The notes under the pieces: generated by a model
Database searches by the model: none
What the model was told of the DNA's origin: nothing
Seen by the model: the letters and a program-made list of their open reading frames with translations, nothing else
Source of the DNA: a virus
Lineage: Duplodnaviria > Caudoviricetes
Length of the DNA stretch: 27,656 nt
Virus record (IMG/VR): IMGVR_UViG_3300031823_000101
Location: 1 to 27,656 of that record
Reading direction: 5' to 3' (one strand)
In this document: one piece after another, positions 3,311 to 25,840 of the stretch
Layout of the letters: each line of letters begins with the position of its first letter
Position numbering within the stretch: position 1 is the first letter of the stretch
Made by a program: the position numbers and the translations under genes

Positions 3311-5944
3311 TTACGGGAGCCGCTTGGTAGGCCAAAACGCCCATGCCGCGATGCCGGATTCGAGGACGACCCGCTTGCGGCGGTAGAACTTATGCTCCCA
3401 ATCGTCCAGTGCCTTCAGATCATCGGCCGAGACGTTGACGCGGAAGCCGCTGACTTCGTGGTCCGGATCGGGATTCAAATCGGAGAAGCCTTCATCAAAT
3501 TCCTTGTGCTCGTAGCCTTCGATCGAGTCGGCCGTCATCGAGACTTCGTGGCCAACGACCTTGGCGAACAGTGAGCCGCTTTTCAGGCTTCCATAGACAA
3601 AGATCGGCAGTGTTTTCTTTCCGGCCGACATTTGCTCGATGCGGCCGTCCATGCTCATTTGCTGTTTTTTCTCTCCGATCGCCGACTTGATCTGGTCTGG
3701 CTTGAAAACGATATAGACGTCGGTGAATGGATTGTAACTTTCCGCCCCCGGTTCAGCCGATGTGAGATCGTAGGAGTTCTTGATGATGATGCCGTCGTAG
3801 CCAATCACGCCAGCCGGATCGGCATCGTATTTTTTCTTGTTCGCGATGATGTCGTGCTCAAGCGTCTTTCGCATCGCTTCGAGTTTGGCGAGGTCTTGCT
3901 GAGGCGGTCCCAGATCATCGTATTCCGCCCAGCCTGGATACTCTTGTAGCAAATCCCAACGCAGCTGCTTGAATCGCCGTTCCTCTTCTGTGCGATATGT
4001 CTCGATGTTATCAGCGACTTCGCCGAGCGAGTCGGCCCACGATTCGCCGTTAGCGTTGATTCGCAACGGATGCTGAATTGAGAGGTAAACCGGGCGAATG
4101 TTGCCGCCCTCTGTTTGAGCGTAGCTGTCTGCGACGTCTGGATTGCTCGCGAAAAAATAGCACGGCACGCCGATCATCGAACTTTGCGTGTTTCCGCCGA
4201 TACGCGATTGAAACTGATCGAAATCCTTTCCGGTCCCATGAAACACGACCAGCGGTCGCCCTTTCTCGTCTGTCACTTCTGAATCGGAGAACCACGCCTT
4301 GAATCCTTTTCTCTCTGGCGTCTTTTTTGGTTCTGGATTTTCTTCGAGTTGGGCCTGCTGTTCTGGCGTCGCCTGCTCTAATGCCTCTGACGGAATGAAC
4401 TCGCCACCTTCAAAAAATTGATTGGCGATTCTAATGCCGTTTTTCGGGGCGTGGCGAATCGCCATTTGCACCGTCTCGTCCCCCCTTGGAGGACGCCCGA
4501 CGAAAAAATCAGTTTGACCGTTTCTGCCCGGTCCAAACCCATTGAAATGCCCCAACCGCTGCCGGCCGCCGTTGACCGTGAACCGCAAGTCAGTCGCAGC
4601 ATAACCGCCAAACGCCGCCGCCGCCTTTTTGAAAATCTTCCGGTGACGTGGACGGATGCTGGAATCGTCCATCGAGAACTGCTGTGCGTCGTCGGCCCGT
4701 TTCTTCATTGAACGTGTATCAGGCCCTTCCATATTGTCAGCACCGTCAATCGCGTCGGCCGGGTCGCCGCCTTCGCCGGTCAACTCATCCGGCATCAGGC
4801 GTTCGATGTCCACTTCCGCCTGCACGTCGTAATCGACCTTGCCAAAGTTGAGTTGCACAAGCGGGTCCCAAACCTGCTCTTTCTCATCGAGGGCGATCTG
4901 CCGGACCGTCTGCTGCTCGCTCAAGATGAAGGCCCGGAACGGCACCGAGCGGCCCGCCCGCGAACCAGACTCGCTCACGGCGGTCACGATGTCATCGGGG
5001 ATTTCAAGGCCGTGCAACGTCTCGCCGCGAAGTTCCTTGAGGTAGTCGTGCAGCCCCTGAGCCTCGCCGTTGAACTTCGGCTCGATGATGGCCCACATGG
5101 GATTTCCTTTTTCATCGAACACGGCCGGATAGCCCCAGACGGCACCCGCGGTGATTGACTCGACCATCTGCCGAGCTAAGTCGCGGTAGGGAATTTTCTG
5201 GATCACGCCGTTGGAATCCTGCCAAGTGTAGTCACCCGGAGGATGCTGAATGCCCCAACCGCTATAGACGTTTTTGTAGAACCACATGAGGCGGAGAGCG
5301 AGTGCCCCGCGTTGATCCCACTTTTCCAGCCACGTCTTATAGCAGCCGAGCAAATCCGAGCGGCCGTTCCAACTGCTGAACCGGCGATTGTGAACGTAGA
5401 CGAACGACTTCGGGGCCAGCAGCTTGATTTCGCCCTTGTCGGTTAACTCGGATTTCTCGTCGCCTTCGTAAGTGGGCCCGGCCTCCGTGCCGGAGTGTGC
5501 ATGAATGCGGATGCCGGCCAAGATGCCCGTCCGTGTGAGAATGCTCATGTCGGCCGAGTAAACGTCGCGGAGCCCAGCCAAGTGGACAAGGCCGTCGTCG
5601 CCCAGCTTGAACAGGTTTTCCCCGCCGCTCCGCGTGTACCATCGGCCTTCGAGCACCCGTGGCATCGTGTAATACCAAGTCGTCGTGATCTGCCGCTTGA
5701 CGTACTCGGCCACTGCCGGATCGCCGTCGATGTTGAACTTTACGGTGAGGCACGGGGCATACTTAATCGCCATGCCCAGCCGAATGTCGCCGTCGAACTT
5801 CATTTGCTCGACATGGCGGATCGTGAAAACCGGCAGGCCAAGCGACGTGAGAGCCGGGAGAGCCAATCCCCAGCCGCTCGGACGGTAGCCGGCAGTGCGG
5901 AACTCCATCAACTGTCGAACGGTCTGGGGAACGACTTCAAGCAT
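3311..5944 (-). CDS. Portal protein (Mu gp29/DUF935-like) fused to an ART-PolyVal-like ADP-ribosyltransferase and a C-terminal gamma-glutamylcyclotransferase (GGCT/AIG2-like) domain
   Basis: The N-terminal ~380 aa are portal-like (GRSDLLGCYKTW, SGSRAGRSV, VWDPLVQLNFG). ~4303-3677: FKAWFSDSEVTDEKGRPLVVFHGT...FFAS...PVYLSIQHP...GYDGIII...YIVFKPDQIKSAIG. ~3612-3314: IFVYGSLK...LKALDDWE...YRR. Confidence 0.85.
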   Translation of the reverse strand: MLEVVPQTVRQLMEFRTAGYRPSGWGLALPALTSLGLPVFTIRHVEQMKFDGDIRLGMAIKYAPCLTVKFNIDGDPAVAEYVKRQITTTWYYTMPRVLEGRWYTRSGGENLFKLGDDGLVHLAGLRDVYSADMSILTRTGILAGIRIHAHSGTEAGPTYEGDEKSELTDKGEIKLLAPKSFVYVHNRRFSSWNGRSDLLGCYKTWLEKWDQRGALALRLMWFYKNVYSGWGIQHPPGDYTWQDSNGVIQKIPYRDLARQMVESITAGAVWGYPAVFDEKGNPMWAIIEPKFNGEAQGLHDYLKELRGETLHGLEIPDDIVTAVSESGSRAGRSVPFRAFILSEQQTVRQIALDEKEQVWDPLVQLNFGKVDYDVQAEVDIERLMPDELTGEGGDPADAIDGADNMEGPDTRSMKKRADDAQQFSMDDSSIRPRHRKIFKKAAAAFGGYAATDLRFTVNGGRQRLGHFNGFGPGRNGQTDFFVGRPPRGDETVQMAIRHAPKNGIRIANQFFEGGEFIPSEALEQATPEQQAQLEENPEPKKTPERKGFKAWFSDSEVTDEKGRPLVVFHGTGKDFDQFQSRIGGNTQSSMIGVPCYFFASNPDVADSYAQTEGGNIRPVYLSIQHPLRINANGESWADSLGEVADNIETYRTEEERRFKQLRWDLLQEYPGWAEYDDLGPPQQDLAKLEAMRKTLEHDIIANKKKYDADPAGVIGYDGIIIKNSYDLTSAEPGAESYNPFTDVYIVFKPDQIKSAIGEKKQQMSMDGRIEQMSAGKKTLPIFVYGSLKSGSLFAKVVGHEVSMTADSIEGYEHKEFDEGFSDLNPDPDHEVSGFRVNVSADDLKALDDWEHKFYRRKRVVLESGIAAWAFWPTKRLP

Positions 5945-6546
5945 CTAGCGTCCTGCGTTGGCTTTCGCTTCGGCCGCAACAAAAGCGTCGATATATGCTT
6001 CCCATTCGTCCGCGACTTCGGCCGCGATCTGCTTTTCTTCCGGTTCCTGCTGCGTGGATCGCTGGGCTGTCATTCGTTTCAGGTCCGCGACGTAATCCTT
6101 GGTCGGGCTGTCGTCGTAAATCCGTCTCAGGGACTCGTCGGCTCGGATGCGGTCGATGGCTCTGTTGAATCCGATGCGGGCGTTTCGTCCGATGGTTCGG
6201 GGATCGATGTTTGGGCAGTAGAATGCAATCCGAACCGTTTGATAAAAAAACGGTCAAGTTCGCCCGCCTTGTCCGCGACTTTCTCGTAAAAGGCCCATGC
6301 CATGTGCAGGCTGACGTCGACGCCGAACTTATTCTTGACGTAACCTTGGACAATCAGCGTGAAGCGGATGCCGTTCTGATCCTCTTTGTTTGGCGTGAGC
6401 TTGGCGATGCTTTCAATGACTTCCAGCGGCGAGATTTTGAACGTCTTGCCGGCGATGACCAGCGTGATCCAGCCGACGTCGTCGCCGAGGTCAATCGTGT
6501 CATCCTTTGGCGGTTGATCGAAATCAGAATTTGTTGGTTGGGTCAT
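5945..6546 (-). CDS. Tail assembly chaperone GT-like -1 frameshift product, about 200 aa
   Basis: Slippery heptamer T TTT TTT at 6250-6244 in the frame of 6127-6546. The -1 frame stays open (YQTVRIAFYCPNIDP...EAKANAGR) to TAG at 5947-5945, which abuts the portal ATG. Confidence 0.75.
6127..6546 (-). CDS. Tail assembly chaperone G-like protein, 139 aa
   Basis: Small acidic ORF with a low-complexity tail after the slippery site, as in G/GT chaperones. Confidence 0.7.
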   Translation of the reverse strand: MTQPTNSDFDQPPKDDTIDLGDDVGWITLVIAGKTFKISPLEVIESIAKLTPNKEDQNGIRFTLIVQGYVKNKFGVDVSLHMAWAFYEKVADKAGELDRFFIKRFGLHSTAQTSIPEPSDETPASDSTEPSTASEPTSP

Positions 6547-8275
6547 TTGCTGTTGCCACCAGAAGTCCGGAAACGTCGCCCGTCAGCACCGTCGCCAACG
6601 TGGTCGGGTCATTTACTTGGAAAACAATGTACCAAATCGATCCGTAAAGCGTAGCCCCGAAGTAGTTCTGAAACGCTGCCGGCTCGATCTTCGAGTAAAT
6701 CTGCGTCCAGCCAGATTGCTGCGTCATCTGCTGAATAACCGACGGCAATTCGACAGGCTGATTCGCTCGCAGGGCGTAGCCGCGGGAGACGACGTAGACC
6801 GGATTCTGCCCTGAAATCTGCGTCTGCGGCACGGGGAGAGTCGTATCGGCGGCTGGAATCGATGGCTGGCCAGGGCTCCCATTCCCGTAATACAGAGCCC
6901 CAAGGCTCCCGTTGCTCTCTGCCGGCGGAGTTGTCGGCAGAGGAAAATGCGTCGTCGAATTATCGCCGCTCTCCACGTGAATGCGATGATCCCAGTCTTT
7001 GTACGTCGTATCACCGAGACTGTTCTGTAGCGGATACGTGTATTGCGGCGGTTGCTGCTGCCCGGGCGTGTAATTGATCGACGATTGCGAGGATCCGGGG
7101 TGGCAATAATCGACGATCAGGTCGTCCGCAGGATTCATGTACAATCCGGCCCCACCGCGAGACAGCCACGCCGAATTGTTCATGGTCGTTTGCCAGTCGC
7201 CCCAATCTGTCGACTGCACCGGCATGAACAGGCCGGTTTTCGTCGCCATGTTGTTCAAGTCTTGCATGTTGTTGACGTAAAAACTGATCGAAAAGTTGAT
7301 CCGTTGGCTATTGAATAACGACTCAGAAATGTCGACATCCTGAAGAAAACAGGCCGCGCCCTGATCCCTGATTGCTTGGACTCTTTCCTGCATGATCATC
7401 AGGGCCACGAGCCAACCCCATCCGTTCGCCTGCGGTTTAACAATTTCAACGGAACCGCTGATCACGCAGTTCGCGATGACAAAATTACCGTTCGCCCTGT
7501 CGCGTTTCGCTCTGGATCGTTGGGTGACTTGGATATCGCTGACGAATTGCGGATAGGCGTTTTGACCGGCGACCTCTTTACAGACTCCGACAAAATCCAT
7601 GCGGCTCTTGTCTTCGCTGATTTTGTAGTCCTGACTGACCAGAATGAAGCCAAGTGGGACCTGAAATTGAAATGCGTCACGCTGTTGATCGGCGTTGTAA
7701 GTGATGCTGGTTGCTCCGGGACTTGAGCGATTCAGGGCGATCGCCAAGTGTCCGTGCGTCGTGACCGTCGTTAATCCCGTCTGGTTGATCGAGAAATCCT
7801 GCGTCCAAACGTAGTCGAGCAACCGATTCTGTTGGCCGACAAAGCTATAGGAGCTGGGGCATTGGGCGATCGCCACCTCGCACGTCCAGTGAACTTGCAT
7901 CACCGCATTGGAAGCAACGGGCCGGTACGCAATCGCCTGTGACTTGGGACCGTACAGCACGTCCACGTTTTGCGAGGTCGTATTGACGCTCAGGCCACCG
8001 TAGCCCAGTCCGCTGAACTCAAGAGGTCCGCCCGGCTGATTGAGCAGGGCCATAATCATCTCGGAATTCATGCCCGCATCGCCGCCGCCGCCGCCAAGTC
8101 CGGTGATGTCGTCGCTAAGGACAAAATCCGTCTCAAGTCGATAGACGTTGTAGAGATTTGTGCGATTGGCACTATCCGGCTGCGGGCGGCAAGAGAATCG
8201 CGTATGGACACGCGGCCCGGCAATGGTCACGCCGTTGTAAGAAATCGTGCCGAGTGCTGGGAGAGTGATTGGCAT
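6524..8275 (-). CDS. Putative tail protein (distal tail/baseplate-like), 583 aa
   Basis: Directly follows the tape-measure-like gene. Beta-rich N/Q/S/T composition and an N-terminal GTISYNG motif. Confidence 0.6.
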   Translation of the reverse strand: MPITLPALGTISYNGVTIAGPRVHTRFSCRPQPDSANRTNLYNVYRLETDFVLSDDITGLGGGGGDAGMNSEMIMALLNQPGGPLEFSGLGYGGLSVNTTSQNVDVLYGPKSQAIAYRPVASNAVMQVHWTCEVAIAQCPSSYSFVGQQNRLLDYVWTQDFSINQTGLTTVTTHGHLAIALNRSSPGATSITYNADQQRDAFQFQVPLGFILVSQDYKISEDKSRMDFVGVCKEVAGQNAYPQFVSDIQVTQRSRAKRDRANGNFVIANCVISGSVEIVKPQANGWGWLVALMIMQERVQAIRDQGAACFLQDVDISESLFNSQRINFSISFYVNNMQDLNNMATKTGLFMPVQSTDWGDWQTTMNNSAWLSRGGAGLYMNPADDLIVDYCHPGSSQSSINYTPGQQQPPQYTYPLQNSLGDTTYKDWDHRIHVESGDNSTTHFPLPTTPPAESNGSLGALYYGNGSPGQPSIPAADTTLPVPQTQISGQNPVYVVSRGYALRANQPVELPSVIQQMTQQSGWTQIYSKIEPAAFQNYFGATLYGSIWYIVFQVNDPTTLATVLTGDVSGLLVATANDPTNKF

Positions 8276-8278
8276 AAA

Positions 8279-9862
8279 TCAGGGGACGTTCTTCGGACCG
8301 CCGATAGCTTGACGGCCGGGAATTGCAGTTCTTTTCCCTTGGTGGGCGGCGGCCCTTTTATTTTGGAATCCTGGAACTTGCATGTTGAATAGGTCGTTCC
8401 AGTTCTTGTCGTCCATGTGGGCATCGCCCTTGAACTCGGTCAGCTTTAACTCGTTGAGGTGAATCCAGAGGAGGAGTGCCCTCTTGGCAAAATCGAGCGA
8501 CTGCACGATGTTTCCCGAGCCTGGAAACGCTCCCGCAATACCTTCGGCCACGCTGTAGGCAAGATCAACAAATGTGCTGCTCAAGTCCACAGACGAAAGC
8601 CAGAGGTTTACTCCGTTCAGGGTCTCCGCGAGTTTTTCCATAGCTGCCGCAAGAATCGGCTCGAACTGCTGCGTCAAGTTGGCTTTTGTGTCCTCCCACG
8701 ATTGATCGATACCGAATTTGCGTTCGGAGAACTGAGACAGGTAGGGAGAGATCGCTTGTGATCGCATGAAGTCCAATTGAAGGCCACGAACCGAAAGAGA
8801 TGCCTGCGTTTCCTGGAACAGACTGCTCAATTGGCCATAGCGAGCGGTCTGCTCGTTGATCGACGTGACAAGGGCATAGGTCGCACCCGTCAGACCGGCG
8901 ACTGCCGCCGCCCCCGCAGCGAGCGGGGCTGCGATCGCCATAATGCCGGCGGCTCCCCCGAGTCCGGCTGCCGCACCTGCTCCGCCGACTCCGCCGCCAC
9001 CGACGATCCCGGCCGCACCGCGAAAGCCCATCGACGCGATTTGGGCAACGCGACCGCCGCGACCCATGACAGTGCCGGCCGCCTGAAGGCCGACGGCCAT
9101 TCCTCTAAGGTTTGCCGCCGCGTGGTGACGCTGCAAACGCCCGGCGACGACAGCCGCCCGCCGGGCGGCGTTGGCTGACCTCTGGCTTGCTTGTGCCACT
9201 CGTGCCGTTTTCTGGCGTTGCTTTCGACGTCTCTGACGGAGCAGGTTAACGGCCTTTGCTTGCCGCTGTGGGCTGCCGCGTTGGTGCATCCCGCGAGGTG
9301 TCACGAAACTCTTGATCGGAATCGGCCGTGCCGCCGCTCGCTGTTGATGACGTCTGCGACGGATCAAGCCTAGTGCCCGTTGACGTCGCTGCGGACTGCC
9401 ACGCTGATACATGCCACGCGGTCCGCGTTGTGCTCCCTGTGGCTGCTTTGTCGTCGGTTGCTGGAGCGATTTGTACTGGTCGAGCACGCCCGCGAATTCT
9501 GCCGCCTGCGGGATGTTCGACTTGGCAAGCGATTCGAGCGACTTGAAGACTTCGCCCAAGGCTTCCATCCCGCCGCGAATCGACTGCATCGCCTCTTTGG
9601 CGGACGCTTCGTAGGCGAGGTCGCGTTGCTGGCCGCCAGAGCGAACCGATTGCCGGTAGGCGGAGTATTTGGACTCTTCCGAGACGAGCCGCTGTTGATA
9701 CTGCTTGAACTGGTCAAGGTCGCGTTGAAAGGCACCTGCGACGCCGGCACCGGCTTCAGCGGATGGGCCTGGGCCTAAACCGGGAGCTGCGGCAGGCTGG
9801 CCGGATGGCTGCTCGCCTTCGCCCTCGATGACGATCCGAAGTTCAGGGTTGTCGCCAGCCAT
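8279..9862 (-). CDS. Short tape-measure-like protein, 527 aa
   Basis: Follows the tail tube. Helical, with a Gly/Ala-rich hydrophobic centre (GAAGIVGGGGVGGAGAAAG...) and an N-terminal ELRIVIEG. Confidence 0.6.
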   Translation of the reverse strand: MAGDNPELRIVIEGEGEQPSGQPAAAPGLGPGPSAEAGAGVAGAFQRDLDQFKQYQQRLVSEESKYSAYRQSVRSGGQQRDLAYEASAKEAMQSIRGGMEALGEVFKSLESLAKSNIPQAAEFAGVLDQYKSLQQPTTKQPQGAQRGPRGMYQRGSPQRRQRALGLIRRRRHQQRAAARPIPIKSFVTPRGMHQRGSPQRQAKAVNLLRQRRRKQRQKTARVAQASQRSANAARRAAVVAGRLQRHHAAANLRGMAVGLQAAGTVMGRGGRVAQIASMGFRGAAGIVGGGGVGGAGAAAGLGGAAGIMAIAAPLAAGAAAVAGLTGATYALVTSINEQTARYGQLSSLFQETQASLSVRGLQLDFMRSQAISPYLSQFSERKFGIDQSWEDTKANLTQQFEPILAAAMEKLAETLNGVNLWLSSVDLSSTFVDLAYSVAEGIAGAFPGSGNIVQSLDFAKRALLLWIHLNELKLTEFKGDAHMDDKNWNDLFNMQVPGFQNKRAAAHQGKRTAIPGRQAIGGPKNVP

Positions 9863-14328: not shown

Positions 14329-15501
14329 TCAGTAACCGTAAGCGGTCGCGTACCCCGAAGCGTAAGGCACGTAATTGCATGGGAATGCGTTGTCGAGAGC
14401 GAACAGCAGCGTCGCGGTCGGATTCCACTGCCACGTCGTCCAGGCCGAGAGTCCCATTTTGACCACGGGATTCTGATTCGGCCCTTCCGCGATCGGCTCG
14501 GAACCGATGGCCATCTCGAAAAAGAACGGGTCCGGCGTCCGCGGTCCGAACCAGAACGAGCCGTCCGCGACGAGTTTCGTCTTGGTGTAACTCGAACTGC
14601 CGGTGCCGGGGTTTTCGGCCGTCTGCTTGCCCAACTGCAAGACCGTGTCCGTGATGATGAACTCCAGCCACGGCGTGCAGGCGAGACGACCGATCTTGAG
14701 GTTACTCGGGGCCTCAATGGTCCCGGACGGACGCCGCGTGTATTCGGAAAACGGCGTGTTGGAGATGCCGGCCTTCATGGCGACAAAGTCATTGGCCGTG
14801 ATGTACGACCAAAGTTGGGCACCACAGACGATCCGCTGGAGACCGATGCCGACCAAGTTCTGCATCGCGATGTCGATCAACTCGAACTGCGTCGGGATGT
14901 CGGTCGCGGACGAGGACCAGTAGCCCGTGATGATGTTGCCGGCCCCCAGCATATTCAACTGGTTTTGGTTGCCGGACGGCATCTGCCAGTTGTACGTGAT
15001 GAGATTCGTGCCGGACGTGTAATCGATATACAGGTCGTTGCCGTTCGGATGTGCGTAGGCCAAGCCACGCATCATGCCGCCCAAGAGCACGGCCCTGAAG
15101 TTGGCCGCCCGCTGACCCATGAACCGCTGTTGCCGGCGAATGAACGACGTGCCCAGCGTGTCGTAGACATTGGAATTGCCGCCGATCGGCCGCATGTTGT
15201 GCAACTCTTCCGCGGACAGCGGCAGTTGCTCGTGCATACGCGGAATCGTGACGTTGACACGACCGACTGCCTGCCGCGTGACGGTCTTGGCCGCTTCGCC
15301 CGGCATCGTGGTCATGCCGACTGATCGGCTGTTGTTGAACACGTCGTAACCGTGGGCACGATGGCCGACCGGCAATTCGCACGGTCCGCCGGGAGTCATG
15401 CCAAACTCGGCCAAGAGCGGCATTTCCGCCGTCGCGACGCGGGAAATGACCTTGGTCGTGACGATGGGCGAGAGAAGTTGTCTGACTGTCGCGTTTGCCA
15501 C
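14329..15501 (-). CDS. Major capsid protein (lambda gpE / Phage_cap_E-like)
   Basis: AGGAG SD + GTG, 390 aa, position after the decoration protein; PGEAAKTV, IPRMHEQ, WSSSATDIP, NPTATLL...AFP motifs. Confidence 0.85.
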   Translation of the reverse strand: MANATVRQLLSPIVTTKVISRVATAEMPLLAEFGMTPGGPCELPVGHRAHGYDVFNNSRSVGMTTMPGEAAKTVTRQAVGRVNVTIPRMHEQLPLSAEELHNMRPIGGNSNVYDTLGTSFIRRQQRFMGQRAANFRAVLLGGMMRGLAYAHPNGNDLYIDYTSGTNLITYNWQMPSGNQNQLNMLGAGNIITGYWSSSATDIPTQFELIDIAMQNLVGIGLQRIVCGAQLWSYITANDFVAMKAGISNTPFSEYTRRPSGTIEAPSNLKIGRLACTPWLEFIITDTVLQLGKQTAENPGTGSSSYTKTKLVADGSFWFGPRTPDPFFFEMAIGSEPIAEGPNQNPVVKMGLSAWTTWQWNPTATLLFALDNAFPCNYVPYASGYATAYGY

Positions 15502-16456: not shown

Positions 16457-17890
16457 CTAGTTCGTCTTGGTCAACTCTGGTTCGTTGCCGTAACCCATGA
16501 GGCGTGCCGCTTCGGACGCGAACTTTTCGGCTTCCTCTTCCGTGATGTTGCTGCCGTCCGGCGTCATAAACGGGTCGCGTGGCTCTTCCCGCGTCGCCAT
16601 TTGCTGAACTCGCTGCTGATCGTCCCATGCCGCTCCATCCCGCATCCGGTCGGCCATACGAAGCTCGGCTTCAAGAATCGCGTCAGCCGGAGCGTCGGCC
16701 GCAAACTGGTACGTGCCGGCCCGTTGTTTCATTTCGTTGGCGACTTCCGGGCTGATCGCACCGCGTTTGAGGTTGGCGTCGATCCGCTGAAGGTACTTTT
16801 CGCGGCGAAGCGTCGTAACTTCCGCCTGGAGAGCCTTTTCGGTCTGCGACATTTGCACAACAGGCTCCGGTTTCGGCTCCGGAGGCTTGGGCGTTGGCTC
16901 GGTGGGCGTCGGATGCGGCGGCTTCCGCTCCGGGTCGATCGACATTTGAAACACACCGGCATCGGCCAGTTCCATGATCCGCTTGGCCTCGTCGGCGGTC
17001 ATCTTGCCAGCGGCAACGGCCTCGTCGAACTTCGCTTTCGCATTGGCGTCGATGGACATAACAAGCACCGATGGTTCAGTTTTGAGCGGGGCTTTCTTCC
17101 CGCCGGGTTCTTGCATCGACTGGCTTCCGCCGGCCAGCCCTTTGTTCGCAATCGAGTACGTTTCGGCCGCTGCCAAAAGTACCTTCAAATCACCGTTCCA
17201 ATTCTCGGGCACCGCGATTCCGAGATTCCTGAGGCAGCAGACGAGTTTTTCGCGTTCCGTGGGCGGTTTCTTGCCCTTTGCCTTTTCGCCTTCCGGGTCA
17301 TTCGGGTCGTACTCGTCATCGACGGTCTGCCTCATGCCGGATTCGTCGTACATCGGTTCGCCGGCCATCTGGATCACGGGATACTTTTCGCTCGCCGCGT
17401 CCAAACTGAGGGCCTGAACCGCCTTGAATTCCTTGGTTTGCTGCGGATTGAGAGGCCGCGGCGTGATCGCCATATGGCTGATCGCCCGCCGATATGTCTT
17501 GCCGGTCAGGGGATTCGTGTACCGGCTGAGTTGCGGGCTGACAAAGCTGCCCACCTTCTCGATGCGGTCCGCATCCTCGTCGCGTGCAATTTCGATCCGT
17601 GCCTTGACCTTTCCGTCCGTGTCGCGGAACAGATCGGTCATCCAGCCGGCCGTCAGATAATCCCGCTCCCGTTTCTCGATTTCCGAGCGATTCTTGCCGT
17701 CGACAGGGTAGCCCATCTGGTCGAGAGCATCCGGGTGAGCGAACGGGACTGGAATCTCCAGCCCGCTCTTCTGCATGTCGTGGAAGTTCTCGATGAATTC
17801 GTCGAAGTCCTTGTCGGTGACTGTGACTGCGGCCCCTTCCGTCAGAAAGGTTCCTGGTCGTCCGACTTCTTTGATGAACTCTCTGGGCAT
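16457..17890 (-). CDS. Mu-like prohead protease I fused to a scaffold region
   Basis: H(P), AGWM, FVSPQL and ISHMAITPRP motifs of Mu-like proteases; charged, coiled-coil C-terminal scaffold. Confidence 0.85.
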   Translation of the reverse strand: MPREFIKEVGRPGTFLTEGAAVTVTDKDFDEFIENFHDMQKSGLEIPVPFAHPDALDQMGYPVDGKNRSEIEKRERDYLTAGWMTDLFRDTDGKVKARIEIARDEDADRIEKVGSFVSPQLSRYTNPLTGKTYRRAISHMAITPRPLNPQQTKEFKAVQALSLDAASEKYPVIQMAGEPMYDESGMRQTVDDEYDPNDPEGEKAKGKKPPTEREKLVCCLRNLGIAVPENWNGDLKVLLAAAETYSIANKGLAGGSQSMQEPGGKKAPLKTEPSVLVMSIDANAKAKFDEAVAAGKMTADEAKRIMELADAGVFQMSIDPERKPPHPTPTEPTPKPPEPKPEPVVQMSQTEKALQAEVTTLRREKYLQRIDANLKRGAISPEVANEMKQRAGTYQFAADAPADAILEAELRMADRMRDGAAWDDQQRVQQMATREEPRDPFMTPDGSNITEEEAEKFASEAARLMGYGNEPELTKTN

Positions 17891-18251: not shown

Positions 18252-18994
18252 TCCATTACCACGGCACGCCAGTCGGCGGCTCGCGAGAACAGGCGACGAA
18301 ATTCTTGAAGGGCCGTCACGCGATGGTCTCATTCGCCCGCGATGAAGATTTGGCGGTCGCGGCTGACGTCTGCCAATCATTCGCGATCGACAACGGGGCA
18401 TTTACGACATGGAAGCAAGGCAACAAATTCGATCCGAACGAATTCACGGATTGGGTAGGAAACAATTGGGCGAAACACCCGGGATTCGATTGGGCTTTGA
18501 TTCCCGACGTTATCGACGGGACCGAGGAAGAAAACGATCTTCTCATTAATCGGTGGCCGTTTGAAATTCGTGGTTGCCCGGTGTGGCATCTTCACGAGTC
18601 GCTCGACCGCCTTAAAAAACTTTGCGGTTTGATCCAGTTTCGTGCCGTCGCTTTCGGCAGTTCCGGCAAATGGAGAACGCCCGGAACGGACGCTTGGAAA
18701 ACACGGATGGGCGAGGCCTTTGACGCGATCTGCGACAGTGACGGTCGGCCGCCATGTCGATTGCACGGCTTGCGAATGCTGGCGTCTGATATTGTTTGTC
18801 GGTTCCCGTTCTCGTCGGCTGATTCGACGAATGCGGTTCGCAATTCGAGTCTCTATGGGCGATATGGCTGCTACTGTCCCCCAGAGCGTTCACAGCGAGC
18901 CGAAAACAACGCCCGCATAATCGAGGCGATCAACAGTCCGCCGGTCTGGAAACGCACGAATCTGCAACTCTCGCTCGATGAACTTTGGGGATGA
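18248..18994 (+). CDS. TGT/DpdA-like transglycosylase (putative 7-deazaguanine DNA insertion enzyme)
   Basis: MIHYHGTP, IDNGAF, IPDVI, PVWH, LHGL and SADST motifs of TGT-like TIM barrels. Confidence 0.75.
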   Translation: MIHYHGTPVGGSREQATKFLKGRHAMVSFARDEDLAVAADVCQSFAIDNGAFTTWKQGNKFDPNEFTDWVGNNWAKHPGFDWALIPDVIDGTEEENDLLINRWPFEIRGCPVWHLHESLDRLKKLCGLIQFRAVAFGSSGKWRTPGTDAWKTRMGEAFDAICDSDGRPPCRLHGLRMLASDIVCRFPFSSADSTNAVRNSSLYGRYGCYCPPERSQRAENNARIIEAINSPPVWKRTNLQLSLDELWG

Positions 18995-18995
18995 A

Positions 18996-19580
18996 ATGAC
19001 CATCGAAGACCTAATCGCCCGCGTCCGCTTCCGCACGCCACAAGCCGAAGTGAACAAAATCCGCGACCGTCACCCGGAATATCACGCACAGAAGTTCTTC
19101 GACTCGGTCACGTTCGGTGCCCAAGCGTGCCATCAGGCCCAGCGTGTCGGGCTGTTCGACGCGAAGCCGGGGAGGCTGCTCGACATTGGGTGTGCGTTCG
19201 GGTACTTGCTTGTCGCGGCGGAGGAGTTGGGGCATTGGGCCGGCGGCATCGACACCACGAGCATGTGCATCTTCGATGCGTGCGAACTTTTCAACGTCCG
19301 GTATTTTCCGCAGAACGTGAAGGCGTTCGAACCGCTGACTATCGACCATCAGGGATACGACTTCATCACCGTTTTCGGCGTCAACTTCGCGGAGGGCGGC
19401 CGATTCTGGGGCTTCGAGGAATACGACTTTTTCTTCCGCGACTGCGTGAGCCGGCTGAATCCTGGCGGCATCGTGTGGGTCGAATACAACCGCGGCGAAC
19501 AGACGTCATGGCTTGCCGATGCCAAGTGGCCCGGGATGAATTTCGAGGCTGTCGACAATCGGATTAGGATAAAAAAATGA
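18996..19580 (+). CDS. Class I SAM-dependent methyltransferase, 194 aa
   Basis: LLDIGCAFGY motif I, YDFIT, RLNPGG. Confidence 0.85.
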   Translation: MTIEDLIARVRFRTPQAEVNKIRDRHPEYHAQKFFDSVTFGAQACHQAQRVGLFDAKPGRLLDIGCAFGYLLVAAEELGHWAGGIDTTSMCIFDACELFNVRYFPQNVKAFEPLTIDHQGYDFITVFGVNFAEGGRFWGFEEYDFFFRDCVSRLNPGGIVWVEYNRGEQTSWLADAKWPGMNFEAVDNRIRIKK

Positions 19581-19803
19581 GTCACACTCCTCCGTGGGCA
19601 ACGCTGATTTTCGCTGTCATGTTTTTCATGACGGCTCAGCTCGTCGGGATCGAAATCAGAATTGAAAAGAGCAAAAAGCCGTTTGACTATTGCATTAAAT
19701 ACCTTGCGTGGGGCATCGGATTTTATTTGGCAATCGTCGCCATTCGTGCCGATGGCAGCTTCATTCCGTGAGCGTTGACAATCGGATTAGGATTCGGAAA
19801 TGA
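19554..19803 (+). repeat. Direct repeat of the methyltransferase 3' end flanking a small gene
   Basis: GACAATCGGATTAGGAT at 19554-19570 and 19777-19793; both copies continue to AAATGA. Confidence 0.85.
19577..19771 (+). CDS. Small two-TM membrane protein, 64 aa
   Basis: ATGA coupling; two hydrophobic segments. Confidence 0.65.
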   Translation: MSHTPPWATLIFAVMFFMTAQLVGIEIRIEKSKKPFDYCIKYLAWGIGFYLAIVAIRADGSFIP

Positions 19804-20057
19804 CTGGACGTCTGCCGGTAATCGAAGCTTGCTACCGGTGCCCGTATGCCTCACGCAAAACACACAGCGAGGACATGGGCGGCTCGCAACGTGGAACGCA
19901 CACGTATTTCCTAAGGTTGTATTGCACGCATCCAAACGGCAAAGACGACGGGAAGATTTTCGACAATTCGGCTGATGAGTTTGGAGAGCATTTTCCAATC
20001 ATCTTGGGCGAAATAGACATTCCAGAATGGTGCCCACTTCCGAAAGCAGAGAAATGA
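19800..20057 (+). CDS. Small Cys-rich putative Zn-binding protein, 85 aa
   Basis: CYRCPY...C...IPEWCPL; ATGA-coupled to the GT gene. Confidence 0.7.
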   Translation: MTGRLPVIEACYRCPYASRKTHSEDMGGSQRGTHTYFLRLYCTHPNGKDDGKIFDNSADEFGEHFPIILGEIDIPEWCPLPKAEK

Positions 20058-21109
20058 CCGATCGACCGATACGAGTGGCCTGCCTCTGTGATCGCGCGGG
20101 ATGGTGCTTCGAAAGCCGAGCACTTCAGATTCAAAAGCACGCCCCGCCGCACCTTCACATCGACGTCCTGCACATCGGCTACAGCAGCATCGAGCACGAA
20201 ATCGTCTGGCCGCTCTACGACGTCGTGTTTTGCATGTGGCCGCAAAAGACGTCAGAGGTCCGGGCGATCCTCGACAATCTCGGCCTCAAGACGCCACTGA
20301 TCGCCGCGTACAACTCCGGCACGCATCGGCCCGGCTACGGCCTCGAAATGACGGCCGCTGCGGATTACGTCATCGTCAACAATTGGGGCTCGTGGGCTCA
20401 CGCGATGGCCAAGTCATTCGGACGGTTCAAGGGCTGCCACATTTCCAACGGCGTGGACATGGGCTTCTATTGCGTCAAGCGACCGATCGCCGAGCGGCCC
20501 AACCGCGTGCTGTGGATCACGTCCGAAACGAAGGCTCAGGACCCCGACGACGTCAAGGGCTGGCGGACGCTGCTGAGACCGCTGGAGCCGATGCTGCGTG
20601 AGAAAGGCATCGAGTGCGATTTCCGCGTGGTGAAGCCTGAAGAGGAAATGACGGCCGAACGGATGGTCGATTGGTACAACAGCGGCTCAGTGTTTCTGGT
20701 GACGTCCAAGAGCGAGGGGACGCCAAACACGGCTCTTGAGGCCGCGGCTTGCGGGTGCGTGATCGTGTCGACGCCGGTCGGTAATCTCACGGAGTTGATC
20801 CAGCCGGGACGCAATGGGGCCATCTTCGAGCGCGGCGGTGATGCGGACGTGCTCAAGGCGTTTGAAGGAATCGAGGCTGCGTTGGCGAATCGGGAAGCGT
20901 GGTCGGCGGCGATGCGTGAATCGCTGATCGGCGGCGAGTGGGAGTGGTCACGAAGGTCGCGGTTTTACCATGCCGTTTTCAAAGGCGTTCACGCTCGCTA
21001 CGCCGTGGATTTCGAGGACTCATCACGTAACAGCGTAATCGGCATGCCGCCGTTCACGTACCTGACGGCTGATCTTGAGCAGATTGACGGGTCGGCTCCG
21101 CCGTTTTAA
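20054..21109 (+). CDS. GT-B glycosyltransferase, family 4-like
   Basis: ISNGVD, YNSGSVFLVTSKSEGTPNTALEAAACGCVIVSTPVG (EX7E motif). Confidence 0.9.
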   Translation: MTDRPIRVACLCDRAGWCFESRALQIQKHAPPHLHIDVLHIGYSSIEHEIVWPLYDVVFCMWPQKTSEVRAILDNLGLKTPLIAAYNSGTHRPGYGLEMTAAADYVIVNNWGSWAHAMAKSFGRFKGCHISNGVDMGFYCVKRPIAERPNRVLWITSETKAQDPDDVKGWRTLLRPLEPMLREKGIECDFRVVKPEEEMTAERMVDWYNSGSVFLVTSKSEGTPNTALEAAACGCVIVSTPVGNLTELIQPGRNGAIFERGGDADVLKAFEGIEAALANREAWSAAMRESLIGGEWEWSRRSRFYHAVFKGVHARYAVDFEDSSRNSVIGMPPFTYLTADLEQIDGSAPPF

Positions 21110-21344
21110 TGCCGAGTATTTCGTCGATCCTGTCACGCAAATCGCACCAAGCGTCGACTTGTGCTCCAGACCAACTCTGCTGCAACGCGAACTGGATCGG
21201 CACCCGGGACTTTTCTAGCAGCCGTCGCAGGCACGCGATTTCATCAAGCAATTCAAGGCCGATCTTCGGATCTTCCATCCATCCGAGCGGGCCAGTCATT
21301 TTCTTGAGACGAAACTTGAGATCGTCTTTGTCCGCTTGATTCAC
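21054..21344 (-). CDS. Hypothetical small phage protein, 96 aa
   Basis: GTGA coupling with the epimerase stop; LELLDEI motif of small phage accessory proteins; 3' end overlaps the convergent GT gene. Confidence 0.55.
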   Translation of the reverse strand: MNQADKDDLKFRLKKMTGPLGWMEDPKIGLELLDEIACLRRLLEKSRVPIQFALQQSWSGAQVDAWCDLRDRIDEILGIKTAEPTRQSAQDQPSGT

Positions 21345-22390
21345 AACCGTTCCCTCCACCCCTGCACAATCTCGACCACGATCTCTTCCAGCGTCCGCGA
21401 CACAGACCAGCCCGGATAATCATGCATCACGCGGCGAAGGTCCGAATAGTAGCAGATGTGATCGCCCTTACGCGGCTGATCCACGTAGACCGATTTCATC
21501 GGCAGTCCGGTTACCGACTCGACCAGCTTGAACGCTTCGAGGATCGAGCACGAATTCGCTTTGCCGCCGCCCAGATTGTACACGGCCGCTTTGCGTGGGG
21601 CCTTGGCGAACTCTTCGACGAACCGGGCCACGTCGACCGCGTGCAGATTGTCGCGGACCTGCTTGCCTTTGTAGCCGAAGATTTTGTACTCACGGCCTTC
21701 GAGGTTGCAGCGGACGAGATAGCTCAGGAAGCCGTGCAACTCGACGCCGGCATGGTTTGGCCCGGTGATGCACCCGCAACGCAGGCAGACTGTCGGCATG
21801 TCGAAGTATCGGCCGTACTCTTGGACCATTAGATCGGCGGCGAGTTTGGAGACTCCGAATGGGGAGTGTAGGCAGACGTCTACGCTCAACATTTCTGTGA
21901 TGCCCTCAAAGGCGTTGCTCATTCTGTGGAAATCGTATCGGTCTTCACTTTCAGTGTGCATGTAAAAATTAGGCCGGTCCCCATAGACCTTGTTCGTCGA
22001 CAGAAACACGAACGGCGATTCAGGGCAATGCTGCCGAGCGGCCTCCAACACGTTCAGCGTGCCCACCGCGTTGATGTCGAAGTCTTCGAGCGGAATCTTG
22101 GCTGAAAGGTCGTGCGATGGCTGCCCGGCTGCGTGGACGATCAGGGAGGGTTTAATCTTGCCGATTCGCCAGTCCATACGGCGTCGATCACAGACGTCTT
22201 CGTGCATGAAGTTTCCGTTGCACCACTTCAATGACCGATCGTTACCAAATGAATTCGGACCATCACCGAGCAATTTTCTACGCCCATAGTTGTCGATTCC
22301 GAAGACTTCCCAGCCCAACTCGGCGAAGTGCCAGCAGACCTCCGAACCGACGAGGCCCGATGAGCCGGTGACGAGGATTGTTTTGGTCAT
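21341..22390 (-). CDS. NAD-dependent NDP-sugar epimerase/dehydratase, CDP-paratose 2-epimerase-like
   Basis: ILVTGSSGLVG, HAAGQPSH, STNKVYG, HSPFGVSKLAADLMVQEYGRYF, GKQVRD, GDHICYYSD; start at ATG 22390 (ATGA overlap). Confidence 0.9.
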   Translation of the reverse strand: MTKTILVTGSSGLVGSEVCWHFAELGWEVFGIDNYGRRKLLGDGPNSFGNDRSLKWCNGNFMHEDVCDRRRMDWRIGKIKPSLIVHAAGQPSHDLSAKIPLEDFDINAVGTLNVLEAARQHCPESPFVFLSTNKVYGDRPNFYMHTESEDRYDFHRMSNAFEGITEMLSVDVCLHSPFGVSKLAADLMVQEYGRYFDMPTVCLRCGCITGPNHAGVELHGFLSYLVRCNLEGREYKIFGYKGKQVRDNLHAVDVARFVEEFAKAPRKAAVYNLGGGKANSCSILEAFKLVESVTGLPMKSVYVDQPRKGDHICYYSDLRRVMHDYPGWSVSRTLEEIVVEIVQGWRERL

Positions 22391-22629
22391 TGGTCGTCTT
22401 TCAAAAAGAAAGCGTTGTTTTTGACGATGCCGGCCGCTTTCCAAAATTGCCATACGCAGCCGAGTTCGGCCGCAATCAGAATCAGCAAGTTGACGATCAT
22501 AAGAGGCAACGAGCACCAATAATTGAACTTATCGCCATGATTCGGTAATGACGCTGCGATTGAATCGTTGCAGAGTCTCGCGGCAACCGCGATCAGCCAC
22601 CACATCGCGATCAATTTGAAGTTCTTCAA
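22387..22629 (-). CDS. Small two-TM membrane protein, 80 aa (MKNFKLIAMWW...)
   Basis: TTGA coupling at 22629; two hydrophobic stretches. Confidence 0.6.
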   Translation of the reverse strand: MKNFKLIAMWWLIAVAARLCNDSIAASLPNHGDKFNYWCSLPLMIVNLLILIAAELGCVWQFWKAAGIVKNNAFFLKDDQ

Positions 22630-23252
22630 GCGTTCCCCTTCTCCGCCAAAATGACACAGACGCCAACGCCCCAGCCGCATGAATTGTAGTTGTCGTTGAC
22701 CTCAATCTTCAGCAGCACACGCCAGCCATTCGCCGCAATCGCCGCCTCAGTCCCACGTCGCGGCCCGATCCACGACCAGTCGTCGACGATCAGGATGAAG
22801 CGGTCCGCGAGGATTGGAGACAGGCGAATCATTGTGTCCCGAGTCGCCTCTTCGGAATGATGAGCATCGTAGAACAATACGTTCACGTCTTGCGGCCCAT
22901 GCTGAACCGAATAATCGACCGCAACCGTGCCGCTGCTCACAATCGTCCTGACTTTGTATTCATTCTCAAATTTTCGGAGATTGTCCTGAAGCGTCTTGAG
23001 GTCTCCGCCGAACTGAGAGAAATTGTCGATTCCGCAGAAGTTGCCTTTGTTATTCCAAGCGGCAGCAATCAAGCTCGCCCCGTGCAACGTCCCGACCTCA
23101 AGATAATTGCACCCATCGAAGTCGCAGATCGCATTCAGCAGCCTCCGCAGTTTCGGCGTGGCGAACCCCGGCACGGCGAGTACCGCTTCGTTCAGACGCC
23201 AGTCTTGGGCGAATGAGAGGACGATGCGTTCGATGGAGAGGGGATCGGTCAT
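22626..23252 (-). CDS. Class I SAM methyltransferase (Methyltransf_24-like, sugar O-methyltransferase type)
   Basis: YLEVGTLHGAS, GIDNF, FYDAHH, ILIVDDW; TAATG coupling. Confidence 0.85.
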   Translation of the reverse strand: MTDPLSIERIVLSFAQDWRLNEAVLAVPGFATPKLRRLLNAICDFDGCNYLEVGTLHGASLIAAAWNNKGNFCGIDNFSQFGGDLKTLQDNLRKFENEYKVRTIVSSGTVAVDYSVQHGPQDVNVLFYDAHHSEEATRDTMIRLSPILADRFILIVDDWSWIGPRRGTEAAIAANGWRVLLKIEVNDNYNSCGWGVGVCVILAEKGNA

Positions 23253-23431
23253 TAATGAAATCCTGCCACGAGGCAGCACGCTAGGCAGACAATCAAAATG
23301 GCACGTATCACAAAGGCAACGCCGCGATCCAGCGGTGTCGTCTTCTGTTTTTCGGATGGCACTCCAAGATCGATCATCAGCCCAGTGCTAATAACAGCGG
23401 CGATCAATAACCATCCCTGTTGCTCAGTCAC
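23252..23431 (-). CDS. Small two-TM membrane protein, 59 aa (MTEQQGWLLIAAV...)
   Basis: GTGA coupling at 23431; two hydrophobic segments. The longer track ORF lies inside the GT gene. Confidence 0.6.
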   Translation of the reverse strand: MTEQQGWLLIAAVISTGLMIDLGVPSEKQKTTPLDRGVAFVIRAILIVCLACCLVAGFH

Positions 23432-24438
23432 GATTGCACCGCCTGTTCGATTTCGGCCCAGAGACGGGATGCGACGGAAGCTGGGGAACAGTCGTGGACC
23501 TGCATCCGGCGAAAGTGGTCTGTCGCGTCGTGATGTTGATCTAATCCACGAACGGCCTGCCCGACAACTTCCGCCAAGTCGGAGAAGTCCGGCTTGCAGG
23601 CGAAGTGCGACGGAAACCCGGCAAGATGCTCGGCACACGGTTTTATTAGTTGGCATCCGGCGAAGATCGCTTCCCAGTCTCGCCAAGCTATCTCGCCCCA
23701 CCCGCAGGGAGAAACCACGCACTTTGAGTTGAAAAGCAGATCGTCGTACTCGACTTGTCCGAGTGGACGGCCAGAGGCTGCCGACACAGCCAATGGCGTT
23801 TTGACAGCGACTCGTTGAAGTGATTCAATGCACGCCTGCCGATGCCGCTCAATCAGGCCGCCGCTGTAGCTGACGGTTCCCGCGAAACTCACGTCAATCG
23901 GCCGATCCGTGTTCGCGGCCCGCTCGTCACCGTACTGCAAAATCCGCTGGCAATGCTCATAAGCCCCGAAGTTAAACGGCACGCTGATCCGTTCCAGCCG
24001 GTCGATCGGCACCTGCTTCGGCCAACGCGGCTCTTCAAAAGGCACACCGAACGCCTCGGCGATCAGCTTTTCCTGATAGCGGCCGTTGTACCGATTCCAT
24101 AGCCACGGATCGGCATACTTCGACGTCTTGAATACCTTTGCCGGTGGGCAGTCCGAGCACAGCAGCCGTCGCGTGATGCCGGTGATGTTCGCTCCGTCCA
24201 AGCGTTCGACCAGAATGTAAGGCACGCCGAACGATTGAACCTCAGTGAGCAACCGGCCCACGCCGTCGCTGTTCGCGTCCTCAAGGCAGAGTTGCTGGAC
24301 AATAATCAGATCAAACGATCTGCCGCAAAGTAAATCGAAGTCGACAAGATCAACATCGTGGTTTTCGGCGACAATTTCCAGCATCCGGCGAAGCGCGACC
24401 GCTTGGGCGTTGTGTGCGAGGCGGAGGGCGATTCTCAT
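23428..24438 (-). CDS. GT-B glycosyltransferase (CgeB/Glyco_trans_1_2- or exostosin-like C-terminus)
   Basis: RPIDVSFAG, YDDLLFNSKCVVSPCGWGEIAWRDWEAIFAGCQLIKP, CKPDFSDL. Confidence 0.8.
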   Translation of the reverse strand: MRIALRLAHNAQAVALRRMLEIVAENHDVDLVDFDLLCGRSFDLIIVQQLCLEDANSDGVGRLLTEVQSFGVPYILVERLDGANITGITRRLLCSDCPPAKVFKTSKYADPWLWNRYNGRYQEKLIAEAFGVPFEEPRWPKQVPIDRLERISVPFNFGAYEHCQRILQYGDERAANTDRPIDVSFAGTVSYSGGLIERHRQACIESLQRVAVKTPLAVSAASGRPLGQVEYDDLLFNSKCVVSPCGWGEIAWRDWEAIFAGCQLIKPCAEHLAGFPSHFACKPDFSDLAEVVGQAVRGLDQHHDATDHFRRMQVHDCSPASVASRLWAEIEQAVQS

Positions 24439-24620
24439 TGTTTTTTATCCGGCCGTGTTTTGGCGACGGCCTCTTTGAGACGTTTGAGCAATCGGTGTGT
24501 GTATGCCGACCCGTACAGTCCACTGCGATAGGCGTCATCCAGCCCGCGAAGATAAAACCTCCGCAGGTCGATCAATTCCCAATGAGAGAATTCGAGTCGG
24601 ACTCGCTTCGCTTTCCTCAT
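24435..24620 (-). CDS. Small basic hypothetical protein, 61 aa
   Basis: First gene after the 24627-24655 promoter; ATGA-coupled to the GT gene. Confidence 0.6.
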   Translation of the reverse strand: MRKAKRVRLEFSHWELIDLRRFYLRGLDDAYRSGLYGSAYTHRLLKRLKEAVAKTRPDKKQ

Positions 24621-24626
24621 CCCCCC

Positions 24627-24655
24627 TCAATACAACTCCGCGACATGGCTGTCAA
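24627..24655 (-). promoter_or_regulatory. Sigma70-like promoter with CATGTC box (leftward)
   Basis: TTGACA-GCCATGTCGCGGAGTTG(17)-TATTGA, with the ATG six nt later. Confidence 0.6.
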
Positions 24656-24668
24656 ATTTGCCAAAAGT

Positions 24669-24697
24669 TTGACGAGCATGTCCGGAACCGGCAGAAT
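24669..24697 (+). promoter_or_regulatory. Sigma70-like promoter with CATGTC box (rightward)
   Basis: TTGACG-AGCATGTCCGGAACCGG(17)-CAGAAT. Confidence 0.6.
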
Positions 24698-24848
24698 GCA
24701 GCAACTCCCGGTCGTGCGTCACAGCATGAAAGATTTCCAGATTTGGTCACGGCTCCTGTTTACTGATAAAGAGCCTGACTGGCGGCAGCGTGCCGCGTGC
24801 GGAAATTACGGAACCGACGTGCGGCCGGGAGAATTTTGAGGCGACAAA

Positions 24849-25127
24849 ATGAGCGGAGAAGGCGAGCTTTGGATTAGTCGAGACGAAGAACCCAATTACT
24901 ACTCGAAGTTTATTTTCTTCTGGGGCGGCGAGCCCACGCTGGAGGCTGGCAGCGAGGGCTTCATTTCCACAGGGGGATCGCTCGGCTGCTTTTCGGTTTC
25001 GATGTTTCCGCACCCGATTCTGCCAGGGACAAAGAAACGGATCGAAGGCCTCACGATCGTGGAGGAAGATGAAGTCGATGACCAGCGAGCGGACGAATCG
25101 GCTTTTGATTACGGAGATCAACAATGA
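24849..25127 (+). CDS. Acidic hypothetical protein, 92 aa
   Basis: GAGG SD; ATGA-coupled to the GT2 gene. Confidence 0.65.
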   Translation: MSGEGELWISRDEEPNYYSKFIFFWGGEPTLEAGSEGFISTGGSLGCFSVSMFPHPILPGTKKRIEGLTIVEEDEVDDQRADESAFDYGDQQ

Positions 25128-25840
25128 TCACAATCTGCCTCACGACATGGCCGCGGAGCAAGGAACGGGTCGAGTATTGCAAACAGGCGATCACGTCTGT
25201 TGCGTACAGAACTAAAAGCTTTGGCGACCTTCGCCATCATGTCGAAATTGTCTGCTCGATTGAGTCGCAGGAAGTCTCTCAGTCCGCAATGCGTGATCTG
25301 ACCGATTTCCTCTTCAATTCGACGGTCCGTTGGAGCGTCAAGAGAACGCCTGCCAATCTCGGTGCCAACCTCAATCGCGTAATGATGGGAGCCATCTGGC
25401 TCGGTGCCGACTATATCCTCCTGATGGACGACGACTACATGGTTCCGGCCCCGCTCGACCTCTCGCCGTACTGCGACTTTCTCGACGCCAATCAAAAGTT
25501 CGCGATGGTCCGCCTGTCGTGGACCGTGATCCCGGCAGGCGACCCGCGGAGCCACTGGATCAAGTTCAAGCCGGGCGAGATCGAGATGCCCAACGGCGGC
25601 AAGTTGCTCGAAGTCGACCCGCAGAGCACGTACTTTTACGCTCAGCAGCCTCACTTGCGACGGGCCAAGTTCCATCAGGAGTACGGCTGGCACAAAGAGG
25701 GCGGCAACCACGGCGAGCCGGAGTGTGAGTTGAACGCGGCGATCAAGGCCGGCAAGTGGCGAATGGCCGCGAGTCCCGTGCAGTTGTTCAAGGACTGTGG
25801 GGCTGTGAGTTCGATTAGCGATGTGGAGAGGTGGGCATGA
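25124..25840 (+). CDS. GT-A glycosyltransferase, family 2-like
   Basis: ITICLTTWPR, LGANLN, YILLMDDDY (DxD motif), PHLRR. Confidence 0.85.
   Translation: MITICLTTWPRSKERVEYCKQAITSVAYRTKSFGDLRHHVEIVCSIESQEVSQSAMRDLTDFLFNSTVRWSVKRTPANLGANLNRVMMGAIWLGADYILLMDDDYMVPAPLDLSPYCDFLDANQKFAMVRLSWTVIPAGDPRSHWIKFKPGEIEMPNGGKLLEVDPQSTYFYAQQPHLRRAKFHQEYGWHKEGGNHGEPECELNAAIKAGKWRMAASPVQLFKDCGAVSSISDVERWA

Follow-up and report, generated by a model that had tools for sequence, protein, structure and literature searches.

A short hydrophobic-small motif shared by a predicted prohead protease/scaffold and the cargo joints of a probable portal polyprotein in an uncultured phage

How might enzymes that are fused to the portal of a phage head become separate proteins? 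The question is raised by a portal gene in the 27,656-nt stretch of DNA analysed here (hereafter the window; IMG/VR record IMGVR_UViG_3300031823_000101, Caudoviricetes, from an uncultured phage), whose 877-residue product (98.6 kDa) carries a small domain, a leader with an ART-PolyVal domain, and a GGCT domain behind the portal core. The preliminary description of this locus had noted the motif Q-[MF]-[SA] (Gln-Met/Phe-Ser/Ala; the strict motif) at the portal joints and throughout a 477-residue protease/scaffold protein, and had proposed it as the cleavage code of the prohead protease. It is probable, on sequence and a predicted fold, that the motif marks prohead-protease sites, with the hydrophobic residue on one side of the cut and the small residue on the other, and that the portal is a polyprotein. 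What stands of the proposal is a selected motif that is shared by scaffold and portal joints and lies beside a protease whose predicted fold resembles assemblin and whose Ser and His residues are conserved; the strict motif itself proved too narrow as the code, the conserved core being hydrophobic-small and the Gln only a variant of this clade.

The motif copies listed earlier for portal and scaffold are all present, and only VQMAIR is shifted, by one base (4471-4454). The portal contains four strict copies where 0.345 are expected (5 of 10,000 shuffles reach four), and the protease/scaffold contains five where 0.228 are expected (0 of 10,000 shuffles reach five); both p-values are post hoc, because the pattern was picked on this window. 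A further 33 hand-picked open reading frames (ORFs) of the window together contain four copies vs 3.4 expected (p 0.45; 2,000 shuffles), i.e. the excess is found in the portal and the protease/scaffold, with the other ORFs at background. All four portal copies lie outside the core, ART and GGCT domains. At this background level, the QFS of the decoration protein (residue 146; the decoration protein of the relative G005 has no strict copy) and the QFS of a 527-residue tail-region protein (residue 377) were attributed to chance. The major capsid protein contains no strict copy and is therefore probably not processed by this code.

Relatives of the locus were returned by alignment-based searches and none by single-sequence locus searches; one of the relatives is located in an assembly of Planctomycetaceae and one in an assembly of Deferribacteres. 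Tests on these relatives are out of sample with respect to the choice of pattern. The paired set comprises 23 records, each with portal and protease, and the portal sets comprise 15 members of the own clade (including the window's portal) and 18 of a sister clade; the breadth of the protease family is a lower bound. With the window pattern fixed beforehand, protease and portal take ranks 1 and 2 among 92 genes in G005 and among 26 genes in G014. In the own clade, the portal tails contain 17 copies of strict Q[FM][SA] vs 1.6 expected, and the cores three vs 2.7. The sister-clade tails are instead enriched in [RK][FML][SAG] (58 vs 25.6 expected), with the broad Gln form at background (12 vs 11.7).

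The scaffold motif positions are kept in six homologues (23-48% identity), and three alignment columns hold [FML][SAG] in 18/22, 21/23 and 23/23 rows of the paired records. A fourth column (12/23 rows) was discounted as an apparent helix; its rows remain in the residue counts over 74 scaffold sites, in which the hydrophobic position is Leu (37), Met (25) or Phe (12) and the next residue Ser (48), Ala (20) or Gly (6). As read from these alignments, the conserved core is x-[F/M/L]-[S/A/G], and Gln is this clade's variant of the preceding residue. The scaffold of G003 (L065:1456-2886) contains FSR/MSR words, and its portal tail is short and without a clear site.

Many cargo cassettes are opened by short conserved leaders (APxG..GGxFIP, FDESKHxR..GxF, DAxGHEH, W..GxRGGxGW), which are possibly retention or ejection signals. 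Leader modules behind a motif are seen in the window (Table 1) and in L037, L046, L051, L052, L061 and G020. In 27 of 29 cases, [FML][SAG] is found at most nine residues upstream of a leader, against a background of 24% (3,894 of 15,950 positions). The patterns of the leaders come from visual inspection, the rows depend on one another, and the count left out one N-terminal row and the G017 and G020 leaders. The residue that precedes [FML][SAG] at leaders is Gln/Glu in 5/5 own-clade and 0/21 sister-clade cases, and Arg/Lys in 0/5 and 14/21 cases, respectively. In these sequences, the first motif residue follows the clade, being Gln here and Arg/Lys in the sister clade, even before homologous cargo leaders. 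The co-variation of the motif across portal/scaffold pairs, which had been put forward as a check, is accordingly positive at clade level: the Gln-over-Arg/Lys excess of the scaffold correlates with that of the portal tail (Spearman 0.72, n = 23, permutation p 0.00015), but the portal and protease trees share the same three clades, so that the co-variation represents one or two independent changes and p is overstated.

For the protease, no Pfam or PHROGs family was found (Pfam was also negative for 13 family members), nor any sequence-based match to solved structures. The first 160 residues were folded with a 13-row alignment, and the model (mean predicted local distance difference test (pLDDT) score 78.6) was compared with 48,161 solved chains. 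The best structural match was the varicella-zoster virus (VZV) protease (Z 9.6, root-mean-square deviation (rmsd) 2.9, 113 aligned), and T4 gp21 (Z 8.6, rmsd 2.8, 110 aligned) and the human cytomegalovirus (HCMV) protease (Z 7.4) also matched; the next row and all below it (5.3 or less) are unrelated. The residues His52, Ser118 and His139 are invariant in 13/13 aligned rows. As in other prohead proteases, the protease is N-terminal to a scaffold, and the gene lies in the head module upstream of the capsid gene. On this model, the 477-residue protein is predicted to be a prohead protease with an assemblin/T4-gp21 fold. When the protease domain was modelled together with portal residues 404-440, the result was uninformative (score 0.01).

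The window portal gave a weak PHROGs portal match (phrog_113, E 3e-5) and no PF06074 match in the Pfam scan; Portal_Mu (PF06074) was matched by 10 of 16 scanned relatives. Because AlphaFold gave no usable model of the complete portal (mean pLDDT 39.6), the placement of linkers rests on Pfam boundaries and alignments. About 65 residues, with the conserved leader in between, separate VQMAIR from the Pfam start of the ART domain, in which the position of the usual catalytic acid differs among the relatives seen. Two relatives, P0009 (61% identical) and P0010 (58%), have the order portal-QFS-linker-QM[SA]-GGCT without ART, with QFS in the place of motif 1 (QMS in G001) and QM[SA] ahead of GGCT, as motif 4 here. 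By comparison with these two, the ART cassette occupies precisely the interval from one copy of the motif to another. Its C-terminal slot differs from phage to phage: it reads QQMS in the window and IN[MF]A in L053, and unrelated carriers have IL[YFH]Q, IRYS or ITK types. In other relatives, the cargo in the tail is TopoIB, 2H/Acb1-like phosphoesterase, LPD3, kinase-like or ART; as in portal-effector fusions, effector domains are fused to a virion head domain and differ between relatives. In L053, a stand-alone ART polyprotein starts with Met-SGVPFDESKH, and the same leader inside the L053 portal reads KRM-SGIPFDERK; with its initiator Met removed, the stand-alone protein would begin at the residue that a cut behind the hydrophobic position would expose in the portal.

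In L035:9749-11932, L051:9875-12934 and L106:12167-15697, the portal is joined to 2H phosphoesterase domains; two of these portals match Acb1 (anti-CBASS) weakly, short of the Pfam cut-off. Polyproteins directly behind the portal gene were observed in L053:13066-17496 (1,477+ aa) and L051:13056-19025 (1,989 aa), with tandem ART-PolyVal or LPD1 cassettes and the clade's motif between them.

Table 1. Features of the portal, protease/scaffold and capsid genes in the window (cuts and sites are predicted)
Feature	Position	Strand	Residues	Remark
Portal gene (probable polyprotein)	5944-3311	-	877 aa	portal core, small domain, leader + ART-PolyVal, GGCT
Portal core	4775..5944	-	about 1-390	no Q[MF][SA]
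Motif 1, QQFSMD	4667..4684	-	421-426	follows acidic linker; predicted cut between F423 and S424
Segment between motifs 1 and 2	4463..4675	-	71 aa	first half kept in P0009/P0010
Motif 2, VQMAIR	4454..4471	-	492-497	predicted cut between M494 and A495
Cargo leader, APxG..GGxFIP type	4391..4450	-	499-518	sister-clade proteins also have one behind a motif
ART-PolyVal domain	3665..4270	-	559-760	Pfam E 8.9e-26; putative activity
Motif 3, QQMSMD	3647..3664	-	761-766	C-terminal slot of ART cassette; predicted cut between M763 and S764
Motif 4, EQMSAG	3620..3637	-	770-775	ahead of GGCT; predicted cut between M772 and S773
GGCT/AIG2-like domain (Pfam GGACT)	3329..3604	-	781-872	E 1.4e-9
Prohead protease/scaffold gene (predicted)	16457..17890	-	477 aa	directly upstream of decoration and capsid genes
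Protease domain	17420..17890	-	about 1-157	predicted assemblin/gp21 fold
His52	17737-17735	-	52	in protease domain
Ser118	17539-17537	-	118	in protease domain
His139	17476-17474	-	139	in protease domain
Variant site QALSLD	17399..17416	-	159	directly after protease domain; candidate release site
Scaffold motif IQMAGE	17357..17374	-	173	column found in 18/22 rows
Variant site LVMSID	17048..17065	-	276	column found in 21/23 rows
Scaffold motif FQMSID	16934..16951	-	314	
Scaffold motif VQMSQT	16841..16858	-	345	
Scaffold motif YQFAAD	16694..16711	-	394	column found in 23/23 rows
Scaffold motif QQMATR	16589..16606	-	429	
Major capsid protein	14329..15501	-		no Q[MF][SA]

For the maturation of the head, the following steps would apply. 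The full-length portal fusion would enter the prohead as a dodecamer with the C-terminal tail inside, and the protease would release itself, fragment the scaffold at up to seven sites and trim the portal at F423 to a core of residues 1-423 (47.6 kDa). The tail would be divided into residues 424-494 (7.8 kDa), 495-763 with leader and ART (30.3 kDa), a nine-residue peptide (764-772), and 773-877 with GGCT (11.8 kDa). Folded ART and GGCT, up to 12 each, may then remain in the head and reach the next host with the DNA, like T4 Alt; we see the chances that the freed domains are retained and ejected as evenly balanced. A further reading, which is possible though rather doubtful, is that the portal is a plug-in polyprotein: cassettes would cross lineages, the boundary slot would be rewritten to the code of the resident protease, and the cuts would expose the leaders as N-terminal retention or ejection signals.

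The conservation, linker position and clade co-variation of the motif would suit any recognition signal, and it could instead serve binding during prohead assembly (as a targeting tag, or by strand pairing of the scaffold with itself or with the portal), the tail being uncut or cut at the first site only. The T4 targeting and processing determinants share one short propeptide (PMC9026906; here and below, statements on published systems refer to the available parts of the cited sources), and third-clade portals without cargo keep one site, followed by a short helix. Such a role is nevertheless unlikely: a portal fusion needs no tag per cargo joint, yet the motif flanks both cassette ends; it is doubled nine residues apart before GGCT and stands directly after the protease domain; and a stand-alone gene begins at the equivalent of a predicted product. 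That the Met-Ser/Met-Ala joints are internal translation starts or gene-fusion relics (cf. gene Z in Mu gene I) is very improbable, although ATG is present at 7/9 strict sites and Mu I has an annotated internal start, because the Phe sites (portal F423, TTC; scaffold F396, TTT) cannot initiate and ribosome-binding sites are lacking by eye: AGGA is found 6 bases upstream of both real starts, and none 5-10 bases before the internal Met codons. In addition, Met, Phe and Leu interchange at homologous sites; a single internal start may still exist in the scaffold. Hardly more credible is a DNA-level recombination relic, chance, or a host-protease site, which the choice of a three-residue pattern on this window might suggest. 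A DNA repeat is excluded because the copies differ in codons (Ser TCG/AGC, Gln CAA/CAG); their flanks are unrelated, the enrichment holds out of sample, and the motif variant tracks the protease clade.

The cutting step itself is shared with another explanation, which differs in the fate of the cargo: cutting at the sites could serve solely to free the portal crown so that DNA can be packaged, and the pieces would leave the prohead or act in the producing cell, without ejection. This fate fits the T4 core fragments, which mostly exit the head after cleavage, and the Mu portal tail, which is missing from the virion map; ejection in this phage is, moreover, purely inferred. It fits less well with the cargo of the relatives (2H/Acb1-like, TopoIB, ART, LPD3, kinase-like), which belongs to classes for which packaging into the head and injection have been proposed (PMC9503650), and a portal fusion would be hard to account for if the enzymes served the cytoplasm alone. 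We regard clearing alone as a possible but somewhat unlikely fate.

Several observations weigh against the favoured reading, i.e. a polyprotein cut by the prohead protease. No cleavage has been observed, and no cultured phage relative was matched by the portal core or by a sister-clade protease. The strict Gln motif fails to put both genes on top in 9 of 11 other genomes or contigs (these come from other clades or, in the case of G003, have another word), and in G005 two of the three ranking hits of the portal are inside the folded core, which weakens that case. Only 9 of 15 own-clade tails contain the strict form, with a variant in four more, and two of the 15 portals, both with short tails, contain no such site; the sister-clade tails show a mild excess of the strict Gln form (7 vs 3.1 expected). 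An automated pick of the best site agrees with the scaffold's first residue in about 11/23 pairs, as read by eye, and the third clade is inconsistent in this agreement. Profile comparisons (hhalign) with single sequences were not significant for P2 gpO (probability 0.7) or Mu gpI (0.2), the profiles being shallow; in the non-significant P2 gpO alignment, Ser118 pairs with Ser107. The dependence among leader rows and among clades given above adds to these points.

Among known systems, phage Mu is similar in its portal family (in the relatives) and in its fused protease-scaffold (gpI, gp32; portal gpH, gp29). The virion map of Mu lacks the last 124 residues of the portal, a loss that was put down to protease I (PMC11915804); the literature searched gave no Mu cut site that had been mapped. 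The scaffold part of Mu gpI contains an ALS-type word five times vs 0.02 expected, and the Mu portal contains one at residues 427-431, within the missing tail, the pattern being chosen post hoc in both cases. The Mu repeat loci (L088) are at 3555-5093 and 7057-8142, and the portal copy is a testable predicted cut site. Unlike the tail described here, that of Mu has no recognised enzyme, and the first motif residue is Ala in Mu and Gln here. P2 gpO combines an N-terminal serine protease with a C-terminal scaffold, processes itself, the capsid and presumably the portal, and removes 31 residues of gpN (PMC7552001). The gpN cut maps between Phe and Thr, and the protease domain of gpO has F141 as its last residue, with Cys next, which we infer to be a cut site; both are hydrophobic-small, as here. 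In contrast, P2 trims the N-termini of capsid and portal, whereas here the capsid has no motif and the sites are in a C-terminal cargo tail.

The proteases T4 gp21, phiKZ gp175 and SPN3US gp245 cut after short Glu motifs (L/I-X-E, A-X-E), and T4 also processes and ejects an ADP-ribosyltransferase, Alt (PMC9026906, PMC10052503). The likeness extends to the short motif that recurs in the scaffold and at substrate boundaries, to the fragmentation of the scaffold, and to the predicted gp21 fold; those enzymes, however, mostly remove terminal propeptides of separate proteins, whereas here the cargo is fused to the portal in a chain of cassettes. The herpesvirus assemblins (MEROPS S21), which gave the best structural match, also have a protease-scaffold precursor; their consensus has a hydrophobic P3, Ala at P1 and Ser at P1'. 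The scaffold site counts agree with P3 and P1', and P1 here is Leu/Met/Phe.

ART-PolyVal, 2H and LPD domains that MuF or portal proteins carry as fused cargo have been proposed to be packaged, injected and processed (PMC5512222, PMC9503650, PMC5576092; Iyer et al. 2017, 2022; Jamet et al. 2017); the available parts of this work name embedded zincin metallopeptidases or fused assemblin-like domains as the main agents of processing and describe no junction motif shared with the scaffold. An embedded zincin is frequent, though not general, in such fusions; none was found in the 877-residue portal, for which Pfam shows only ART-PolyVal and GGACT. On scaffold cleavage, only general statements were found in the available parts of PMC11445458 and PMC2628397. 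The literature searches, with most subscription papers and supplements outside their scope, returned no description of a junction motif shared with the scaffold. The principle is already known from T4, SPN3US, P2 gpO, Mu portal trimming and the portal-effector fusions; for a code that works at the level of cassettes and is matched to the clade, the literature searched gave no description.

In the remainder of the window, a cluster of methyltransferase, glycosyltransferase and NAD-dependent epimerase genes (18978-25840; Pfam) suggests capsid or DNA glycosylation. The 527-residue tail-region protein (8279-9862, minus strand) has a very Arg-rich middle and is in the position of a short tape measure. 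A 139-residue protein directly upstream of the portal (6127-6546, minus strand) has no family and is not a terminase. The portal gene comes after the tail genes, and the gene order is similar in G005.

The release of enzymes from multi-domain portal/MuF effector fusions has so far been a proposal in the sources consulted. If the code is right, the head protease releases these enzymes, and cassette boundaries and mature products become predictable from sequence; Mu protease I should then cut the Mu portal between L429 and S430. Unnamed cassettes between motifs would be candidate counter-defence proteins, Acb1-like 2H domains being already there in relatives. Should the plug-in reading hold as well, a single virion would deliver each counter-defence enzyme in about 12 copies, and the repeat within the scaffold could reveal what cargo an uncultured phage carries.

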